Origin: Candidatus Velesiimonas alkalicola
GTDB taxonomy: Bacteria > Omnitrophota > Gorgyraeia > Velesiimonadales > Velesiimonadaceae
NCBI GenBank assembly: GCA_013626165.1
Contig: NDHX01000002.1
Coordinates: forward strand, 64,639-128,638
Reading direction: 5' to 3'
DNA: 64,000 nt
Part shown: in pieces, positions 38,533 through 45,031 of the stretch
Numbering within the stretch: position 1 is the stretch's first letter
Layout of the letters: every line of letters begins with the position of its first letter
Position numbers and translations under genes: made by a program
The notes under the pieces: generated by a model
Told to the model about the DNA's origin: nothing
Seen by the model: the letters and a program-made list of their open reading frames with translations, nothing else
Databases searched by the model: none

Positions 38533-39816
38533 TTAAAAGGTTGGGCAAATATATTCTATTTCCCCATCCGCTATGGTAAGAATAATCTTACCCTTCAGTG
38601 TCCAGCCAAGCCAGGGAGAGTTTATGGATTTTGAAAATATTGTGCTTCTTTTAACTTCCCATACATCATCAGGGTCAAATACAACAATATCTGCCCTTGA
38701 GCCAATACTCAAATGACCGGCATCTATACAAAGTATCTTTGCAGGACCAAGACTCATCAGTTCAACAAGCCTCCTGTAATCTATCAGTTTTGTATGAACC
38801 ATATAAGTATAGATAACACTTAACGCTGTTTCAAGCCCTATTATTCCAAAAGGTGCATTATCAAATTCAACCTCTTTCTCCTCTTGCGTATGAGGTGCAT
38901 GGTCGGTCGCAATGGCATCAATTGTGCCATCAATAACTGCTTTTCTTAACTGTTCTCTATTTTTTATATTTCCTATCGGAGGATTGACCTTAAGGTTTGT
39001 ATTATAATCAAATAAATCCTCATCGGTAAATGCAATATAATGCGGGGATGTTTCGCAGGTCAGGGACAACGATTTTGCCTTCGCCATTTTTATAAGTTCT
39101 ATTGAAATGCTCTTACTTATATGACATAGATGAAGCCTGCATCCTGTTTTTCTTAAAAGTTCTATATCCCTTGCAACCATTATACTTTCGCTTTCTGCAG
39201 GAATCCCTTTCAGTCCAATTTTTGTGCTGATGTATCCCTCACTCATTACACCATCTGCAGACAAGGTTCTATCCTCACAATGTTCAAATATCGGAACATC
39301 AAACATCCTTGCATATTCCATTGCTCTTCTGGCAAGAGATGCATTCTGGATACAATTCCCATCGTCTGATAGCGCTGATATGCCTGCCTGTCTTAAAAGA
39401 CCTATCTCACTTAATAGCATACCTTCTCTTTTTTGGGTTATACAACCTGCAACACAGAGCCTTATGTTGCTTTTGTGTTTTGCCTCCTCTATTATTGACC
39501 GGACAATTTCCTGCTCATCAATGGGAGGATTTGTGTTCGGCATACAGGTTATTGTTGTCCAACCTCCGTGTGCCGCTGCTTTTAAACCGCTTTCTATTGT
39601 CTCCTCATCTTCCCTCCCCGGCTGTCTTAAATGTGCGTGTAGATCAATAAGCCCTGGAAACACAATCTTGCCTTTTGCATTTATCACTTTTGCATCATCA
39701 CAGGTAATGCCTTTCTTGACAGACGCTATCACACCATCTTTTACAAGAATATCCAGTGTGTTGTCTATATTATTTTTTGGATCTATAACCCTGCCGTTTC
39801 TTATCAGTATCTTCAT
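38533..39816 (-). CDS. pyrC: dihydroorotase
   Basis: DLHAHLRQPG metal-binding motif; HAPH motif; 427 aa. Confidence 0.85.
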   Translation of the reverse strand: MKILIRNGRVIDPKNNIDNTLDILVKDGVIASVKKGITCDDAKVINAKGKIVFPGLIDLHAHLRQPGREDEETIESGLKAAAHGGWTTITCMPNTNPPIDEQEIVRSIIEEAKHKSNIRLCVAGCITQKREGMLLSEIGLLRQAGISALSDDGNCIQNASLARRAMEYARMFDVPIFEHCEDRTLSADGVMSEGYISTKIGLKGIPAESESIMVARDIELLRKTGCRLHLCHISKSISIELIKMAKAKSLSLTCETSPHYIAFTDEDLFDYNTNLKVNPPIGNIKNREQLRKAVIDGTIDAIATDHAPHTQEEKEVEFDNAPFGIIGLETALSVIYTYMVHTKLIDYRRLVELMSLGPAKILCIDAGHLSIGSRADIVVFDPDDVWEVKRSTIFSKSINSPWLGWTLKGKIILTIADGEIEYICPTF

Positions 39817-39903
39817 ATCTTTCCCATTTAAGTTGTCTTAATGCTATCTAATGTTCACACCGGAGTTAATTTCAGAAGTTATGTGTAGGGTTGTGCAAGG
39901 TGC

Positions 39904-40785
39904 TTAGGTTATAATAAACTGAAGTTTTTTCTGTCGCAAAGCATTCTGATGCCTTTTTTTAGGACTATATCTTCCTGTAAATTCACCCTTCTCTTTTCTT
40001 TCTTTGAAAGTTTTTATTACAATATGTTTGGACATCTCTTCTTTAACAAATTTTAACTCGCTTTCATAATTCTTTAACCTATTTTCTATAAATTTAATAT
40101 ATTCTTCAGAGATTTCTATACCAATATAATCGCACCTCAATATTTTTGCTGCTATTAAAGTTGTTCCGCTTCCGCAATAAGGATCAAGCACTACTCCTTT
40201 TTTTTCATCCATTGTTGAAGAAATTGCTCTAATAGGTAATGCTAAAGGGAAAGGAGCAGGATGAGGATTTTTTCGTTCAGGGGAAAATCGCCAGATTGAT
40301 GTTAATAATGCATGTTTAGGTTTTAATTCTTCACCTATTAATTTCTTTTCTTTCGGTTTGTAAAGCCAGTATATTCTTTCTTCTACCTGCCAGAATCTCC
40401 ATCCCCTGATATTAGCCGCAATCATTCTATCCCAAATTATTTCTTGCCTGATTAGCCATTTTGTTTTTCTCAACCAATCTACAGGATGAAACATCTCACC
40501 CCTTTCCCACCTTATTTTATGATTGTAGAAAAATGACCCACCAGGTTTAGTAATTCTAAAAATTTCATTCAATACCACTATTTGATTTTTTTGGTATTCA
40601 TCTTCGGGCAATTTATCAGTCACTCCTGAATACTTTACATTTTTTACCAACCAACCTTTCTTGTTTTCGCCTTTATTGTATGGTGGTGATGTTACTCCAA
40701 CATCAACAACTTCATCAGGTAGACTCTTTAAAACAGTTAAAGCATCCCCTTGAATTATTTTATTTAAATATTCTTTTGGGTTCAT
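39904..40785 (-). CDS. DNA methyltransferase, beta-class amino-MTase (N4-C or N6-A)
   Basis: Motif IV SPPY precedes motif I DPYCGSGTT (beta permutation); 4-nt overlap with upstream putative endonuclease gene. Confidence 0.8.
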   Translation of the reverse strand: MNPKEYLNKIIQGDALTVLKSLPDEVVDVGVTSPPYNKGENKKGWLVKNVKYSGVTDKLPEDEYQKNQIVVLNEIFRITKPGGSFFYNHKIRWERGEMFHPVDWLRKTKWLIRQEIIWDRMIAANIRGWRFWQVEERIYWLYKPKEKKLIGEELKPKHALLTSIWRFSPERKNPHPAPFPLALPIRAISSTMDEKKGVVLDPYCGSGTTLIAAKILRCDYIGIEISEEYIKFIENRLKNYESELKFVKEEMSKHIVIKTFKERKEKGEFTGRYSPKKRHQNALRQKKLQFIIT

Positions 40786-41492
40786 TTTGTCATTCCCTCT
40801 AAAAACTCGTAAAAACCCTTAGAAATACATGGTTCATATTTTGCTAATTCAGTTTTATTTAAAAGATGGACAATTTTTAAATTTGGGCTTTTGATAAAAT
40901 CTTTGTAATCAAAGTCAGCACTTCTTAAAAATTGCCCTTTCGTGCTTTTACTTCCTTTTAATTTCCTCTGCCATTTCTGTATTTTTATTTCCAAGTTTTT
41001 CACAAAATCAGGAGAGTTAAACAGAAATTCAATAATATAAATCAGTTTGCCGTCTACAAATCCACTTACTAACAAATTTAAATCTTTTTCCTTTTTATCC
41101 CTTTCTAATCTTGCTGGTGTATAATCAGTAAAATTCCCCCCACCATTTAATTTTGCTGGACTTGTTTTCCTTTCTCCTTTCTTATATTTTTCAAACTCCT
41201 CGGTATCAAAATTTTTAGGTTTTGCTTCGCACTTGACTGTCTTCCCTGCTGTATAGGAATCTTGCTTAAATCCGTTATATCCAATTTTACCTTCTTTGTG
41301 TTTATATCCTGCCAAACTCACTGTTATAAATTCCCTAATTGTTGAAGAATTTTTATCATTTATATACATTGTTAATAAATCAAGTAGTATTCCAATGAGG
41401 GTGTCTTTAGATTTGCCTATCAAGTAATTGTTTAATTCTTGATGAGTTCCTGTGGAATAGATTTTTATAATATTGACAAGCTCCTGATTCAT
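40782..41492 (-). CDS. putative type II restriction endonuclease (cognate of adjacent MTase)
   Basis: 236 aa; candidate PD-(D/E)xK signature (QD...CEAKPK); translationally coupled to the MTase. Confidence 0.4.
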   Translation of the reverse strand: MNQELVNIIKIYSTGTHQELNNYLIGKSKDTLIGILLDLLTMYINDKNSSTIREFITVSLAGYKHKEGKIGYNGFKQDSYTAGKTVKCEAKPKNFDTEEFEKYKKGERKTSPAKLNGGGNFTDYTPARLERDKKEKDLNLLVSGFVDGKLIYIIEFLFNSPDFVKNLEIKIQKWQRKLKGSKSTKGQFLRSADFDYKDFIKSPNLKIVHLLNKTELAKYEPCISKGFYEFLEGMTK

Positions 41493-41581
41493 TTTATTCC
41501 ATACTCATTTTTTAATACTAACCAGTTTGTGCTTTAAAGATCCCCTTCTACACTTTCCCCTGCCCGCCGCCTACTATTTTT

Positions 41582-42508
41582 TTATCTTACTCCTGCTATC
41601 AGAAAAAGAACAGCCATCCTTACCGCAACACCGTTTGTTACCTGTTCAAGTATAACAGAATACTTTCCATCCACAACATCAGATGTCAGTTCAATTCCTC
41701 TATTGACAGGGCCCGGATGCATTATAAGAATATCAGGTTTTGCCCATTTCTGAAGTTTTTCAGTATCTAGACCAAAAAACCTCTGATACTCTCTTATAGA
41801 TGGGAACAGCCCCATACCTTGTCTTTCCGTCTGTATTCTTAACATATTCACAACATCTGCATTGCGAACCGCCTGCTCAAGAGAGTTTGTCAAACAGACA
41901 CCCATCTTTTGTATGTCACAAGGAATAAGTGTTGAAGGTCCACACACTGTTACATTTGCACCCAATTTTGTAAGCCCCCATATGTTAGACCTTGCAACTC
42001 TTGAATGTTCTATATCACCCACAATGCTTATATTTAGTCCTTTTACCCTTCCTTTTTTCTCTTTTATTGTATAAATATCAAGAAGTCCTTGTGTCGGATG
42101 TTCATGCGAACCATCTCCTGCATTTATCACCCCTTGTTTAAGTACACTTGCAACCATCTTTGCCGAACCACAGGATGGATGTCTTATTACAATAAGGTCT
42201 ATTTTCATAGCCTCAATATTTTTTACGGTATCTATGAGTGTTTCACCCTTATTTACACTTGATGTTGAGGAAAAAAAATTTATTGTATCTGCGCTTAACC
42301 TTTTTTCTGCAAGTTCAAATGATATTCTTGTTCTTGTGCTTGATTCAAAAAAAAGATTTACAATTGTCAATCCTTTCAAGGCTGGAACTTTTTTAATCTG
42401 TCTTAGTGAAACCTCTTTGAAGGAATCTGCTGCCTGTAAAATAAGTTCTATCTCATCAGGACTTAATTCTTCAAGCCCCAGAAGGTCTTTCCTTCTCCAT
42501 TTTGCCAT
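41582..42508 (-). CDS. pyrB: aspartate carbamoyltransferase catalytic subunit
   Basis: STRTR carbamoyl-phosphate motif ([13 protein letters not shown]); HPxQ and HPGP blocks. Confidence 0.9.
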
Positions 42509-42511
42509 GCT

Positions 42512-43081
42512 TTATTCTCCTTCAAGCAACACCTCATCAACACCATCAATCTCTTTAAGTTTTACCTGAATAACCTGACCGATTTTTGTTTGTATTTTTT
42601 TACCCATATAATCAGCCTGTATGGGAAGTTCTCTTAACCCCCTGTCTATAAGAACGGCAAGCTGAATAGTTTTGGGTCTTCCAAAATCCATAATCGCGTC
42701 CATAGCGCTTTTTATTGTTCTACCGGTAAAAAGAACATCATCAACCAGTATAATGTTTTTGTTGTATGTATCAAAATCTATCTCGGTTTTTTTTACTACG
42801 GGCCGGTTTATTTCGTATAACGAAACCGTGCTTTTTGGGACAAGTGTAAGGTCGTCCCTGTAAAGCGTTATATCAAGTCCACCGACAGGAATTTTAAATT
42901 CTGTCTTCTTAAAAGTTACATCGGCAAGCCTTTGGGCAAAAGGGAGTCCTCTTGTTTTTATACCAACAAGAGCAACTTTTTGAATATCCTTGTTTTTATA
43001 AATAATCTGGTCTGATATATCCAGAATCCTATTTTTTATATCCTGCTCATCCATTATTTTCATATACTCCCACTCTAACAT
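42512..43081 (-). CDS. pyrR: bifunctional pyrimidine operon regulator / uracil phosphoribosyltransferase
   Basis: 189 aa; PRTase motif ILVDDVLFTGRT; conserved position upstream of pyrB. Confidence 0.85.
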   Translation of the reverse strand: MLEWEYMKIMDEQDIKNRILDISDQIIYKNKDIQKVALVGIKTRGLPFAQRLADVTFKKTEFKIPVGGLDITLYRDDLTLVPKSTVSLYEINRPVVKKTEIDFDTYNKNIILVDDVLFTGRTIKSAMDAIMDFGRPKTIQLAVLIDRGLRELPIQADYMGKKIQTKIGQVIQVKLKEIDGVDEVLLEGE

Positions 43082-43100
43082 GCCCGCAATATTTTGTCAA

Positions 43101-44534
43101 TTAAATATAAAAAGGTATCGCTGTTATTTTTTTACACCATTCTAACGCATGTTTTCTTGTTTTTATTTTTCCCTGTATCTGCATATCCTGTATCTTCTTT
43201 AATACCTGCCCTATTACAGGTCCTTGTTTCAGCCCCATACTTAAAATATCCCTTCCTCTTAAAAACGGCTCTATCATCTTTTTTTCTGTATCATAATAAC
43301 CCGAAACAACTCTTTGTAAAAATTTCAAAACTTTTTTTGCCTGTAGCGGTTTTATACTTCCTAAATCAGAAACAGAGACAAGGCATAAGCCTATTATATC
43401 CGGTCCTGCATCTTTGAAAAATCTTCTTATTCCTTTTTTTGGAAAATTCAGTTCGGCAAGATGACCGGCCCTCATATGCATTTTAACAAGCATCTTTAAA
43501 AGATACCTTTCATCATTAGATAGTTTAAATCTTTTGCTTATAATCTGACAGTATTTTTCACCCGTGGATTCATGCCCATAAAATGTGTATCCTTTGCCTT
43601 TCCTGTACTTTCTGGTATCCGGCTTTCCTATATCATGAATAAGGATTGCAAATCTTAAAATCCAGCCTTTTTTTTCAAGATATACATCAATTTTTTTTTT
43701 AAGAGTTCCTTTTAATGATAAGACAAGATTATCAAAATATTTTAATGCTTCTATAGAATGCTTCCATACAGATAGTCTGTGAAATCTTCCCCCTTTTATC
43801 TTTCTTAATTTTATAGATTCAGGAAGTAAAACATTCCAGGCGCCCATCTCTGTCATATCATTCATAGTTGAGTAGGTCTGTTTTGAGCCAAACAGCCTTA
43901 ACAATTCCTGACGGATCCTTTCTGCCGGAATATCCTTAATTTTGTTTAGCGCTCTTTTTGCAAGAATTTTTGTTTTTTTATCTATCAAAAGACACTGACT
44001 TGAACCTATTGAAAAAAGCCTTATGATTCTTACAGGGTCTTTCAAGAACGCATCCTCACGAGGAACTTTTAACAAGCCCTTTTTTATATCCTGTAGCCCA
44101 CCGGTTGTATCAATAATATTACAGGAAGGAAATTCAACGGCAATTGCATCTACCGTAAAGTCTCTTCTTTTTAAGTCCTGTTCAATACTTTCTTGATATT
44201 CTGTAACATCAATACAAAAATTGTTCATCCAGCCTTTTCTTAAAAGGTTAGAAGGGGCAGGGCCCGGAGGCGGAAAAGGAATGCGGTATGTGGTTGGATT
44301 TTTCCCAAGATAAACAATATGTGAGTTTAAAATTTTGGAAAGGTTTTTTGAAAAAAGACACGCATTTATATTTACCACAATATCTACATCAAGTATAGGT
44401 ATTTTTTTTAAGAGCATATCACGAACTGCTCCGCCTACAATATACACAGAATCTACACCTGAGGTTTTTTTTGCTTTTTTAAGGGCTTGGAAAACTTTGC
44501 GGGGGAGAAACTTATTCAAATCCAAAAAATGCAT
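43101..44534 (-). CDS. cca: CCA tRNA nucleotidyltransferase with C-terminal HD domain
   Basis: Pol-beta NTase head GGAVRDMLL...DVD; HD motif region HDIGK; 477 aa. Confidence 0.8.
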   Translation of the reverse strand: MHFLDLNKFLPRKVFQALKKAKKTSGVDSVYIVGGAVRDMLLKKIPILDVDIVVNINACLFSKNLSKILNSHIVYLGKNPTTYRIPFPPPGPAPSNLLRKGWMNNFCIDVTEYQESIEQDLKRRDFTVDAIAVEFPSCNIIDTTGGLQDIKKGLLKVPREDAFLKDPVRIIRLFSIGSSQCLLIDKKTKILAKRALNKIKDIPAERIRQELLRLFGSKQTYSTMNDMTEMGAWNVLLPESIKLRKIKGGRFHRLSVWKHSIEALKYFDNLVLSLKGTLKKKIDVYLEKKGWILRFAILIHDIGKPDTRKYRKGKGYTFYGHESTGEKYCQIISKRFKLSNDERYLLKMLVKMHMRAGHLAELNFPKKGIRRFFKDAGPDIIGLCLVSVSDLGSIKPLQAKKVLKFLQRVVSGYYDTEKKMIEPFLRGRDILSMGLKQGPVIGQVLKKIQDMQIQGKIKTRKHALEWCKKITAIPFYI

Positions 44535-44540
44535 TGTACC

Positions 44541-44939
44541 TCATACCTCTAGGGAGTTTTGAAGCACATATTCTTCTGCAAATATAGGAGATTTCATACG
44601 AAGAGCAATGGCAAGTCCGTCACTGGGCCTTGTATCAATTACCACTTCTACATCTTCTTTATTTTTAAATACAAGTTTTGCATGGAAGGTTCCGTTTTCA
44701 ATCTTATCAATAATAAGCTTTTCTAATTTTATTTTAAATTTTTCTATCATAGATTTTATCAAATCATGTGTCATAGGTCTCTGGTACTGCACATCATAGA
44801 TGTTATCGTATATAGCCCTTGCTTCATTTATACCTATTACTATTGGTAATATCTTTGTGCCGGATTTCTCTTTCAGGACAACCACCTGCTCCAACCTTGT
44901 TTCATCTATCTGTATTTGAAGAAGTTTCATCTCAATCAT
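44541..44939 (-). CDS. bifunctional nuclease family protein (DUF151)
   Basis: 132 aa; characteristic PIVIG..EA.AI...YQRP.THDL block. Confidence 0.6.
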   Translation of the reverse strand: MIEMKLLQIQIDETRLEQVVVLKEKSGTKILPIVIGINEARAIYDNIYDVQYQRPMTHDLIKSMIEKFKIKLEKLIIDKIENGTFHAKLVFKNKEDVEVVIDTRPSDGLAIALRMKSPIFAEEYVLQNSLEV

Positions 44940-45031
44940 ATTACCTTCTTCTGTACACGAGCCCGCCCTACAACCCCATTTTATCTTATCAAAATTTAAT
45001 CCACACCAGATAGTCTATGGAGGAAGGAAAG

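Follow-up and report, generated by a model that had tools for sequence, protein, structure and literature searches.

A probable Type II restriction-modification cassette between pyrB and pyrC of Candidatus Velesiimonas alkalicola

What is a pair of genes resembling a restriction-modification (R-M) system doing in the middle of a pyrimidine operon? The question is raised by a stretch of 64,000 nucleotides (here called the window) of contig NDHX01000002.1 from Candidatus Velesiimonas alkalicola, a member of the Omnitrophota, in which two overlapping genes separate pyrB from pyrC. We call them R, for a putative restriction endonuclease of 236 amino acids (aa), and M, for an amino-methyltransferase of 293 aa. 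The explanation that we find quite probable as a whole is a compact Type II R-M cassette, acquired horizontally and lodged in the pyrB-pyrC spacer, the pairing being called Type II because separate, adjacent R and M genes travel together. All the coordinates and gene calls of a preliminary description of this locus agree with the list of open reading frames (ORFs) and with the sequence itself, and PyrR, PyrB and PyrC score above curated cut-offs. Read along the minus strand, the genes are pyrR, pyrB, R, M and pyrC, as follows.

42512..43081, minus strand: pyrR (PyrR / uracil phosphoribosyltransferase), NCBIfam NF003549, E 2e-61, above cut-off; host gene upstream of the insertion
41582..42508, minus strand: pyrB (aspartate carbamoyltransferase catalytic subunit), NCBIfam NF002032, E 1.2e-121; host gene on the 5' side of the insertion
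41493..41581, minus strand: pyrB-R spacer of 89 nt, G-rich on the coding strand
40782..41492, minus strand: R, putative restriction endonuclease of 236 aa, PvuII-fold model, key residues N73, E89 and K91
40782..40785, minus strand: ATGA overlap of the R stop and the M start, read from the sequence
39904..40785, minus strand: M, beta-class amino-methyltransferase of 293 aa, PF01555, E 5.7e-34
39817..39903, minus strand: M-pyrC spacer of 87 nt, no predicted terminator
38533..39816, minus strand: pyrC (dihydroorotase), TIGR00857, E 5.5e-127, above cut-off; host gene on the 3' side of the insertion

The start of pyrB lies 3 nt past the end of pyrR, and a GAGG is found ca. 9 nt 5' of the M ATG. Neither the pyrB-R spacer nor the M-pyrC spacer contains a listed ORF, and the unit has no small helix-turn-helix controller (C) gene.

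A two-gene insertion in the pyr operon

Among 80 related loci, 72 have pyrR, pyrB and pyrC directly next to one another, 9-103 bp separating pyrB from pyrC; in the window this distance is 1765 bp. Homologues of R or M are found at none of the 80. The nearest pyrB homologues, at 70% identity, come from metagenome-assembled genomes (MAGs) of Omnitrophota in a data set with one genome per species. Because these relatives have pyrB and pyrC side by side and lack the pair, we are very confident that R and M are an insertion, as had been proposed for this locus, and not a core feature that the relatives share. One could still imagine the two genes as an ancestral core part of the pyr operon in this particular lineage. 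They are found at this site in all four assemblies of the organism (the 236-aa sequence is also on record, unchanged, as a hypothetical protein of "bacterium Unc6"), and their G+C content at third codon positions (GC3, 0.25) matches that of the host genes. However, an ancestral origin sits badly with their absence from all 80 related loci and the adjacency of pyrB and pyrC in 72 of them, and also with a contrast in identity: the pair recurs at 72-89% in contexts and phyla that are not related, whereas no other genome has a pyrB more than 70% identical to the flanking one. We regard it as extremely improbable. The cassette has the lowest G+C content in the window (0.315, the 0.8th percentile of 1.6-kb windows); its GC3 is like that of the host genes, and it is therefore not a very recent arrival from a donor of different composition.

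Mobile R-M units that have no mobility genes and are inserted in chromosomal gene clusters were described by Furuta, Abe and Kobayashi in 2010 (PMC2853133). Like them, the cassette is an R-M pair devoid of other cargo, found in one genome while relatives lack it at the corresponding site. Unlike them, it shows neither the long target duplications nor the inverted repeats reported in that work, and no integrase, transposase or other mobility gene was found with it. No direct repeats of at least 30 bp and no inverted repeats bracket the unit, as the spacers on its two sides (39817-39903 and 41493-41581) share no repeat pair, which led us to reject a target duplication around the cassette. Its junctions are not resolvable, there being no closely related empty site for comparison.

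In another MAG (locus L032, 1489-3796) a different insertion of 2.3 kb occupies the same pyrB/pyrC junction. It is made of a 131-aa ORF and a 594-aa ORF, the product of the latter being rich in hydrophobic stretches and possibly a membrane protein. The spacer has thus been hit more than once.

Linkage and spread across phyla

In 75 of the 80 metagenome loci retrieved with R, the next gene is an M homologue (60-88% identical), the other five ending at contig ends, and the 4-nt R/M overlap is the usual junction in these copies. R homologues with 72-89% identity occur in WOR-3, Firestonebacteria, Elusimicrobiota, Patescibacteria, WS2, Euryarchaeota and Pacearchaeota, the hosts of the cassette ranging from 0.25 to 0.51 in G+C. 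As judged from sequence, the cassette entered by horizontal transfer and has spread across bacterial and archaeal phyla. A related pair is found just after ychF in Persephonella, where the R homologue has 219 aa, is 55% identical, carries GYNG and overlaps the start of an M that is 81% identical to REBASE M.PmaEXORF210P. The Persephonella marina contig starts at the M gene, and the linkage was read from a sister Persephonella contig.

With duplicates merged, the pair recurs in at least 55 other distinct contexts. The upstream neighbour is co-oriented with the cassette in 34 of 39 (binomial p = 2e-6 versus 0.5), and the two flanks both share its orientation in 19 contexts and both run against it in 2 (p = 2e-4). 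Where a neighbour is co-oriented, the median gap is 77 nt on the upstream side and 79 nt on the downstream side. Small upstream gaps include -17, -11, -4, 1, 3, 6 and 11 nt, and in five contexts M runs 4-14 nt into the following host gene; with junctions this tight or overlapping, the unit is no more than two ORFs. The neighbours are housekeeping genes, several of them classic operon partners, as in the following loci.

L009 (Firestonebacteria): gap gene upstream, pgk downstream
L133: gcvH upstream, gcvP downstream
L098: kdsB upstream, kdsA-like gene downstream
L109: dapB upstream, folK downstream
L145: aminotransferase gene upstream, homoserine dehydrogenase gene downstream
L135: ribE upstream, radical-SAM gene downstream
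L124: leuS upstream, proC downstream
L100: gene without identification upstream, tmk downstream
L106: holB upstream, contig end downstream
L093: a second pyrB upstream; contig ends 190 nt downstream, with no pyrC start seen

In the last of these (23-2556) the cassette begins 6 nt past the pyrB stop, with R 85% and M 67% identical to those of the window, and the sequence after M is unlike pyrC. Its pyrB is only 62% identical to that of the window, and this insertion is therefore independent.

Comparison of the sequences upstream of R in 38 copies revealed no conserved leader and nothing in common but the ATG. An attempt to define the ends of the cassette by aligning the DNA of its copies failed, as saturated synonymous sites leave the non-coding flanks unalignable, and given this saturation the absence of shared upstream sequence is hardly informative on where the ends first lay; the limits of the unit are set by the tight junctions alone. 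Two other leads were discarded along the way: a 42-aa ORF at equal offset upstream of R in two loci is a coincidence, its products being unrelated, and the tandem phosphoglucomutase genes flanking the cassette in one locus (L092) are not a target duplication.

A PvuII-like fold for the R protein

Searches with R, both as a single sequence and as a 70-sequence profile, returned no match in Pfam, NCBIfam, PADLOC or the PDB and nothing usable from a plasmid collection. Tested specifically against Pfam Endonuc-PvuII (PF09225), R gave no match at E <=0.1, and a single one of 70 family members reached E 0.081. The protein does match PHROG 3210, a family with no assigned function, and it has 889 relatives in a database clustered at 90%, which fall into 252 clusters at 50% identity. 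Among 70 diverse members the near-invariant positions are D46, N48, S49, S50, R53, E54, K69, G71, E89, K91, P92, G117, G119, D123 and F145.

An AlphaFold2 model built from the 70-member alignment had a predicted local distance difference test score (pLDDT) of 95.3 and a predicted template-modelling score (pTM) of 0.89. When compared with the PDB by Foldseek, its 12 best matches were all PvuII (E 2.4e-6 to 1e-4, probability 1.0), followed by DpnI, EcoRV, SwaI and the Hjc resolvase. Profile-sequence alignment with hhalign, for which the PvuII sequence was identical to that of the PDB, placed G-N-D58...E68-L-K70 of PvuII on G-Y-(D/N)73...E89-x-K91 of the family. This placement fits the model, in which position 73 comes just before strand 74-78 and E89 and K91 lie within strand 84-95; across 201 family members these last two residues hardly vary, if at all. 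The modelled R has the fold of a PvuII-type restriction endonuclease, with an alpha-beta-beta-beta-alpha-beta core, and its ExK half-motif on the third core strand. The PD-(D/E)xK-like signature that had been noticed in this protein is thereby borne out by the fold and the conserved ExK, and structure prediction speaks for a nuclease instead of against one. If so, this would be a widespread nuclease family of PvuII-like fold that has no name in Pfam, NCBIfam or PADLOC.

The likeness to PvuII (PDB 1pvu/1pvi; EcoRV/PvuII branch), the best structural match at E 2.4e-6, goes beyond the alignment of its catalytic E68-x-K70 with E89-x-K91. Both proteins are small, with N-terminal helices before the nuclease core, and both are paired with a beta-class amino-methyltransferase of SPPY/F type. 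They differ in that no sequence homology is detectable by Pfam or phmmer, and R is 80 residues longer, with Asn in place of Asp58. The systems differ too, the cassette having no C protein, an R-then-M order with overlapping codons and a predicted site, TCGA, that is not the CAGCTG of PvuII.

How far does a fold of this kind make R an active enzyme? Several observations weigh against activity. The Foldseek TM-score to PvuII is moderate (0.57-0.60 on PvuII length) and hhalign gives only a weak match to it (E 0.0026, probability 11%). Opposite the metal-binding Asp58 of PvuII, at the start of the second core strand, R and 120 of 120 close relatives have Asn73, no compensating acidic residue consistent across the Asn73 group is found nearby, which disposed of the compensating acid that we had considered, and Asn at the position of PvuII D58 is not known to us from any characterised PD-(D/E)XK nuclease. 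Moreover, M is frameshifted beside an intact R in 2 of ca. 68 copies (L091 5708-6524 and L109 5693-6513). Unless these two cases stem from faulty assembly, they speak against a nuclease that is lethal. R is frameshifted in L161 (5001-5692) and truncated in L144 (1527-2123), and both genes are frameshifted in L154 (5001-6548); the disrupted copies may reflect real decay or errors of assembly.

These same features, the Asn shared by R and all 120 close relatives, the two intact R genes beside a broken M and a location in housekeeping operons instead of defence islands, would suit a different role, in which R is an inactive or non-restricting DNA-binding protein of PvuII fold and the pair an epigenetic methyltransferase with its specificity or regulatory partner. 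However, E89-x-K91, E54, D46 and D123 are all kept. With synonymous sites saturated (pS ~0.7), R has a ratio of nonsynonymous to synonymous substitution rates (dN/dS) of 0.07-0.12 and M one of 0.08-0.14, so that purifying selection on R appears as strong as that on M. R and M have stayed strictly linked through many independent transfers, as is characteristic of a restriction system. Finally, position 73 in distant members of the family is Asp in 50 of 81 and Asn in 29, and this interchange within one family suggests that both residues suit one function. A non-restricting R is accordingly improbable in our view. The side-chain oxygen of Asn is still able to ligate metal, and we infer that Asn73 is compatible with function in this family; it is mainly for the indirect nature of this last step that we call R a likely active endonuclease and do not go further. 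The original assignment of a Type II R-M nuclease holds as regards the fold and the ExK, but at the first catalytic position there is Asn and not Asp, which leaves activity as likely only. The alternation of Asp and Asn at a canonical catalytic position is modestly new and testable by simple mutagenesis.

In 48 cyanophage records a helicase gene is followed by a distant R homologue that stands alone; it matches PHROG 3210. In Synechococcus phage ACG-2014d (L170 2908-3504, equal to NC_026923.1 29568-30164) it has 32% identity to R, with Asp at position 73 and the ExK kept, and lies after the helicase gene with no adjacent methyltransferase.

The methyltransferase and its predicted target

The assignment of the downstream gene is much simpler. 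M matches PF01555 (N6_N4_Mtase) with 118.4 bits against a cut-off of 26.7 and the PADLOC models for Type II methyltransferases (MTase_II) at E 6e-41. It belongs to the beta class because motif IV (SPPY, residues 32-35) precedes motif I (DPYCGSGTT, residues 210-218). Together with the PDB match to N4CMT described below, these results uphold the earlier reading of M as a beta-class SPPY amino-methyltransferase, and M is almost certainly a DNA methyltransferase.

Its closest solved relative is the N4CMT of bdelloid rotifers (PDB 8s9n, also 8s9m; E 4.7e-46), with which it shares 42% identity across 238 aligned residues of the catalytic domain, SPPY included. This enzyme, of bacterial origin, makes N4-methylcytosine (m4C) by experiment and uses SPPY as its catalytic motif (PMC8885841, PMC10406627). 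It differs from M in being eukaryotic and fused to a chromodomain, in having no nuclease partner and in its loose specificity. The best bacterial identities to N4CMT given in the structural paper were under ca. 40% (PMC10406627); the family of M is among the closest prokaryotic relatives of the rotifer enzyme found to date, and by sequence it may therefore be close to the prokaryotic lineage that donated the rotifer gene.

Among REBASE entries, compared through the supplementary sequence file of PMC8885841, M is 67% identical to M.PmaEXORF210P of Persephonella marina and 56-63% identical to M.HciORF741P, M.Hwi430ORFCP, M.Tru12173ORF8030P and M.TbaTF1ORF1101P. The identity is nearly full length, all five have SPPY, and all five are putative enzymes labelled TCGA, with the base left as N4 or N6; none is known in a pyr operon. 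In beta-class enzymes the target recognition domain lies between motifs VIII and X, and the identity extends through this region. From the labels of these homologues we predict TCGA as the target of M, with somewhat better than even confidence, and N4-methylcytosine as the more likely, if not settled, product.

Some caution is due here, as the TCGA assignment is based solely on REBASE labels of putative enzymes, and in Helicobacter pylori a beta-class enzyme, M.HpyAX, modifies this sequence at adenine (PMC3936762). The site carries N6-methyladenine (m6A) in H. pylori and m4C in Thermoplasma, and outside H. pylori both marks have been reported with no gene assigned. Site avoidance is of little help. 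The ratio of observed to expected (O/E, Markov expectation) TCGA in the window is 0.44, but every 4-bp palindrome is depleted as well (CTAG 0.18, GATC 0.33, ACGT 0.38, AGCT 0.55, CATG 0.55), and palindrome avoidance was therefore rejected as a non-diagnostic pointer to the target. Such a general depletion suggests long exposure to several restriction systems. In a comparison of cassette-bearing contigs with controls, TCGA was the most differentially depleted 4-mer (O/E 0.47 versus 1.08).

Three further observations concern the same sequences. Avoidance of 4-bp palindromes is much weaker in Omnitrophota relatives that have no cassette. In the cassette copies of loci L090-L169 (84.7 kb pooled) GGCC was observed 23 times versus 119 expected (O/E 0.19), an avoidance stronger than in the flanks (O/E 0.47). 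The last ca. 20 residues of M vary between copies (window 39904-39990 and the equivalent ends elsewhere), and the C-terminal tail seems, from these alignments, to be derived from its context or free to vary.

Transcription of the cassette

Where does the cassette obtain its transcripts? The stretch from pyrR to pyrC has no predicted terminator on the minus strand, and sites resembling promoters around the cassette occur at chance level for the sigma-70 consensus, although the promoters of this phylum may differ from it. One weak promoter-like match (39939-39911, 9/12) falls within the end of M. Upstream, pyrR follows the preceding gene at 19-37 nt in a long co-directional array. Given the bias in orientation, junctions of a few nucleotides and the absence of detected signals, we lean towards transcription of the cassette by read-through from the host.

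The alternative would be an ordinary R-M system that transcribes itself, its position between pyrB and pyrC being incidental and of no functional consequence. R-M systems do insert at many places (PMC2853133), and the AT-rich spacer of 89 nt could hold a promoter missed by a sigma-70 scan. Against this stands the strong bias towards co-orientation across the 55 contexts. Many junctions of 1-25 nt, or overlapping host genes, leave no room for a private promoter or terminator, and no conserved upstream leader accompanies the unit. Autonomous transcription consequently seems unlikely to us. Read-through from the host needs to be distinguished from the more specific proposal that retention and expression of the cassette are coupled to pyrimidine biosynthesis. 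General read-through from upstream is supported, but control by pyrimidines is not: an Rfam scan of 37500-45000 at E <=1 retrieved only a tRNA and no PyrR-binding RNA element, so that a specific tie of the cassette to pyrimidine regulation is not supported.

A possible history and its significance

The course of events that we propose is the following. An R-M cassette would have entered an Omnitrophota-like genome horizontally and landed in the short pyrB-pyrC spacer in the orientation of the operon. M would protect the TCGA sites of the host, most likely at cytosine N4, and a homodimer of the PvuII-fold R would cleave unmodified sites on incoming DNA, as its fold, linkage and selection suggest. 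The ATGA overlap, which is visible in the sequence, would couple the synthesis of M to that of R. With no recognisable promoter, terminator, controller or mobility gene of its own, the cassette would depend on read-through from the upstream co-directional genes, and pyrC would now be transcribed through it. Post-segregational killing is general for Type II R-M systems, and would here oppose loss of the cassette, as would the risk that an imprecise deletion harms pyrB or pyrC.

Taken as a family, these could be promoter-less two-ORF R-M cassettes that hitchhike co-oriented in tight housekeeping operons, borrow transcription, are costly to excise and carry a nuclease that works with Asn. This broader picture is tentative and we would not bet on it; if it were true, excision of a hitchhiking cassette would be costly to the downstream essential gene, and a PvuII-fold enzyme would naturally use Asn. 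Much of this is already known, since the group of M is listed in REBASE, the fold of R is an established one and R-M units inserting in chromosomal gene clusters have been described. The novelty at the family level is modest and lies in the co-oriented lodging in housekeeping operons across phyla and in the Asp/Asn alternation. The cassette in the pyr operon is a real but fairly ordinary selfish defence module in a housekeeping operon. It does provide a testable prediction, specificity for TCGA and probably N4-methylcytosine, and the family as a whole is a data set on how bare R-M units devoid of mobility genes spread and on whether embedding in an essential operon stabilises them.

The neighbourhood of the cassette

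The genes around the cassette are a housekeeping array and not a defence island. The co-directional array consists of metK, ahcY, a BFN-domain gene, a PolyA_pol-family (poly(A) polymerase/CCA-adding) gene, pyrR and pyrB, and it continues after the cassette with pyrC, tRNA-Met, pdxA, rsmA and thiI. The tRNA-Met (CAT) is at 38413-38486 of the window, on the same strand and 46 nt past pyrC. The flanking segment 41540-41581 had been singled out as unusually C-rich. The tract exists, with 19 C in 42 nt versus 22% overall, but it is only mildly unusual, as 29 regions of the 64-kb window are as C-rich.

Downstream of thiI, two assemblies of the same organism differ (L002 16820-17845 versus L001 16873-19749), one carrying an IS110-family transposase gene and the other a GH38 alpha-mannosidase gene, which indicates a strain-level rearrangement ca. 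6 kb from the cassette.

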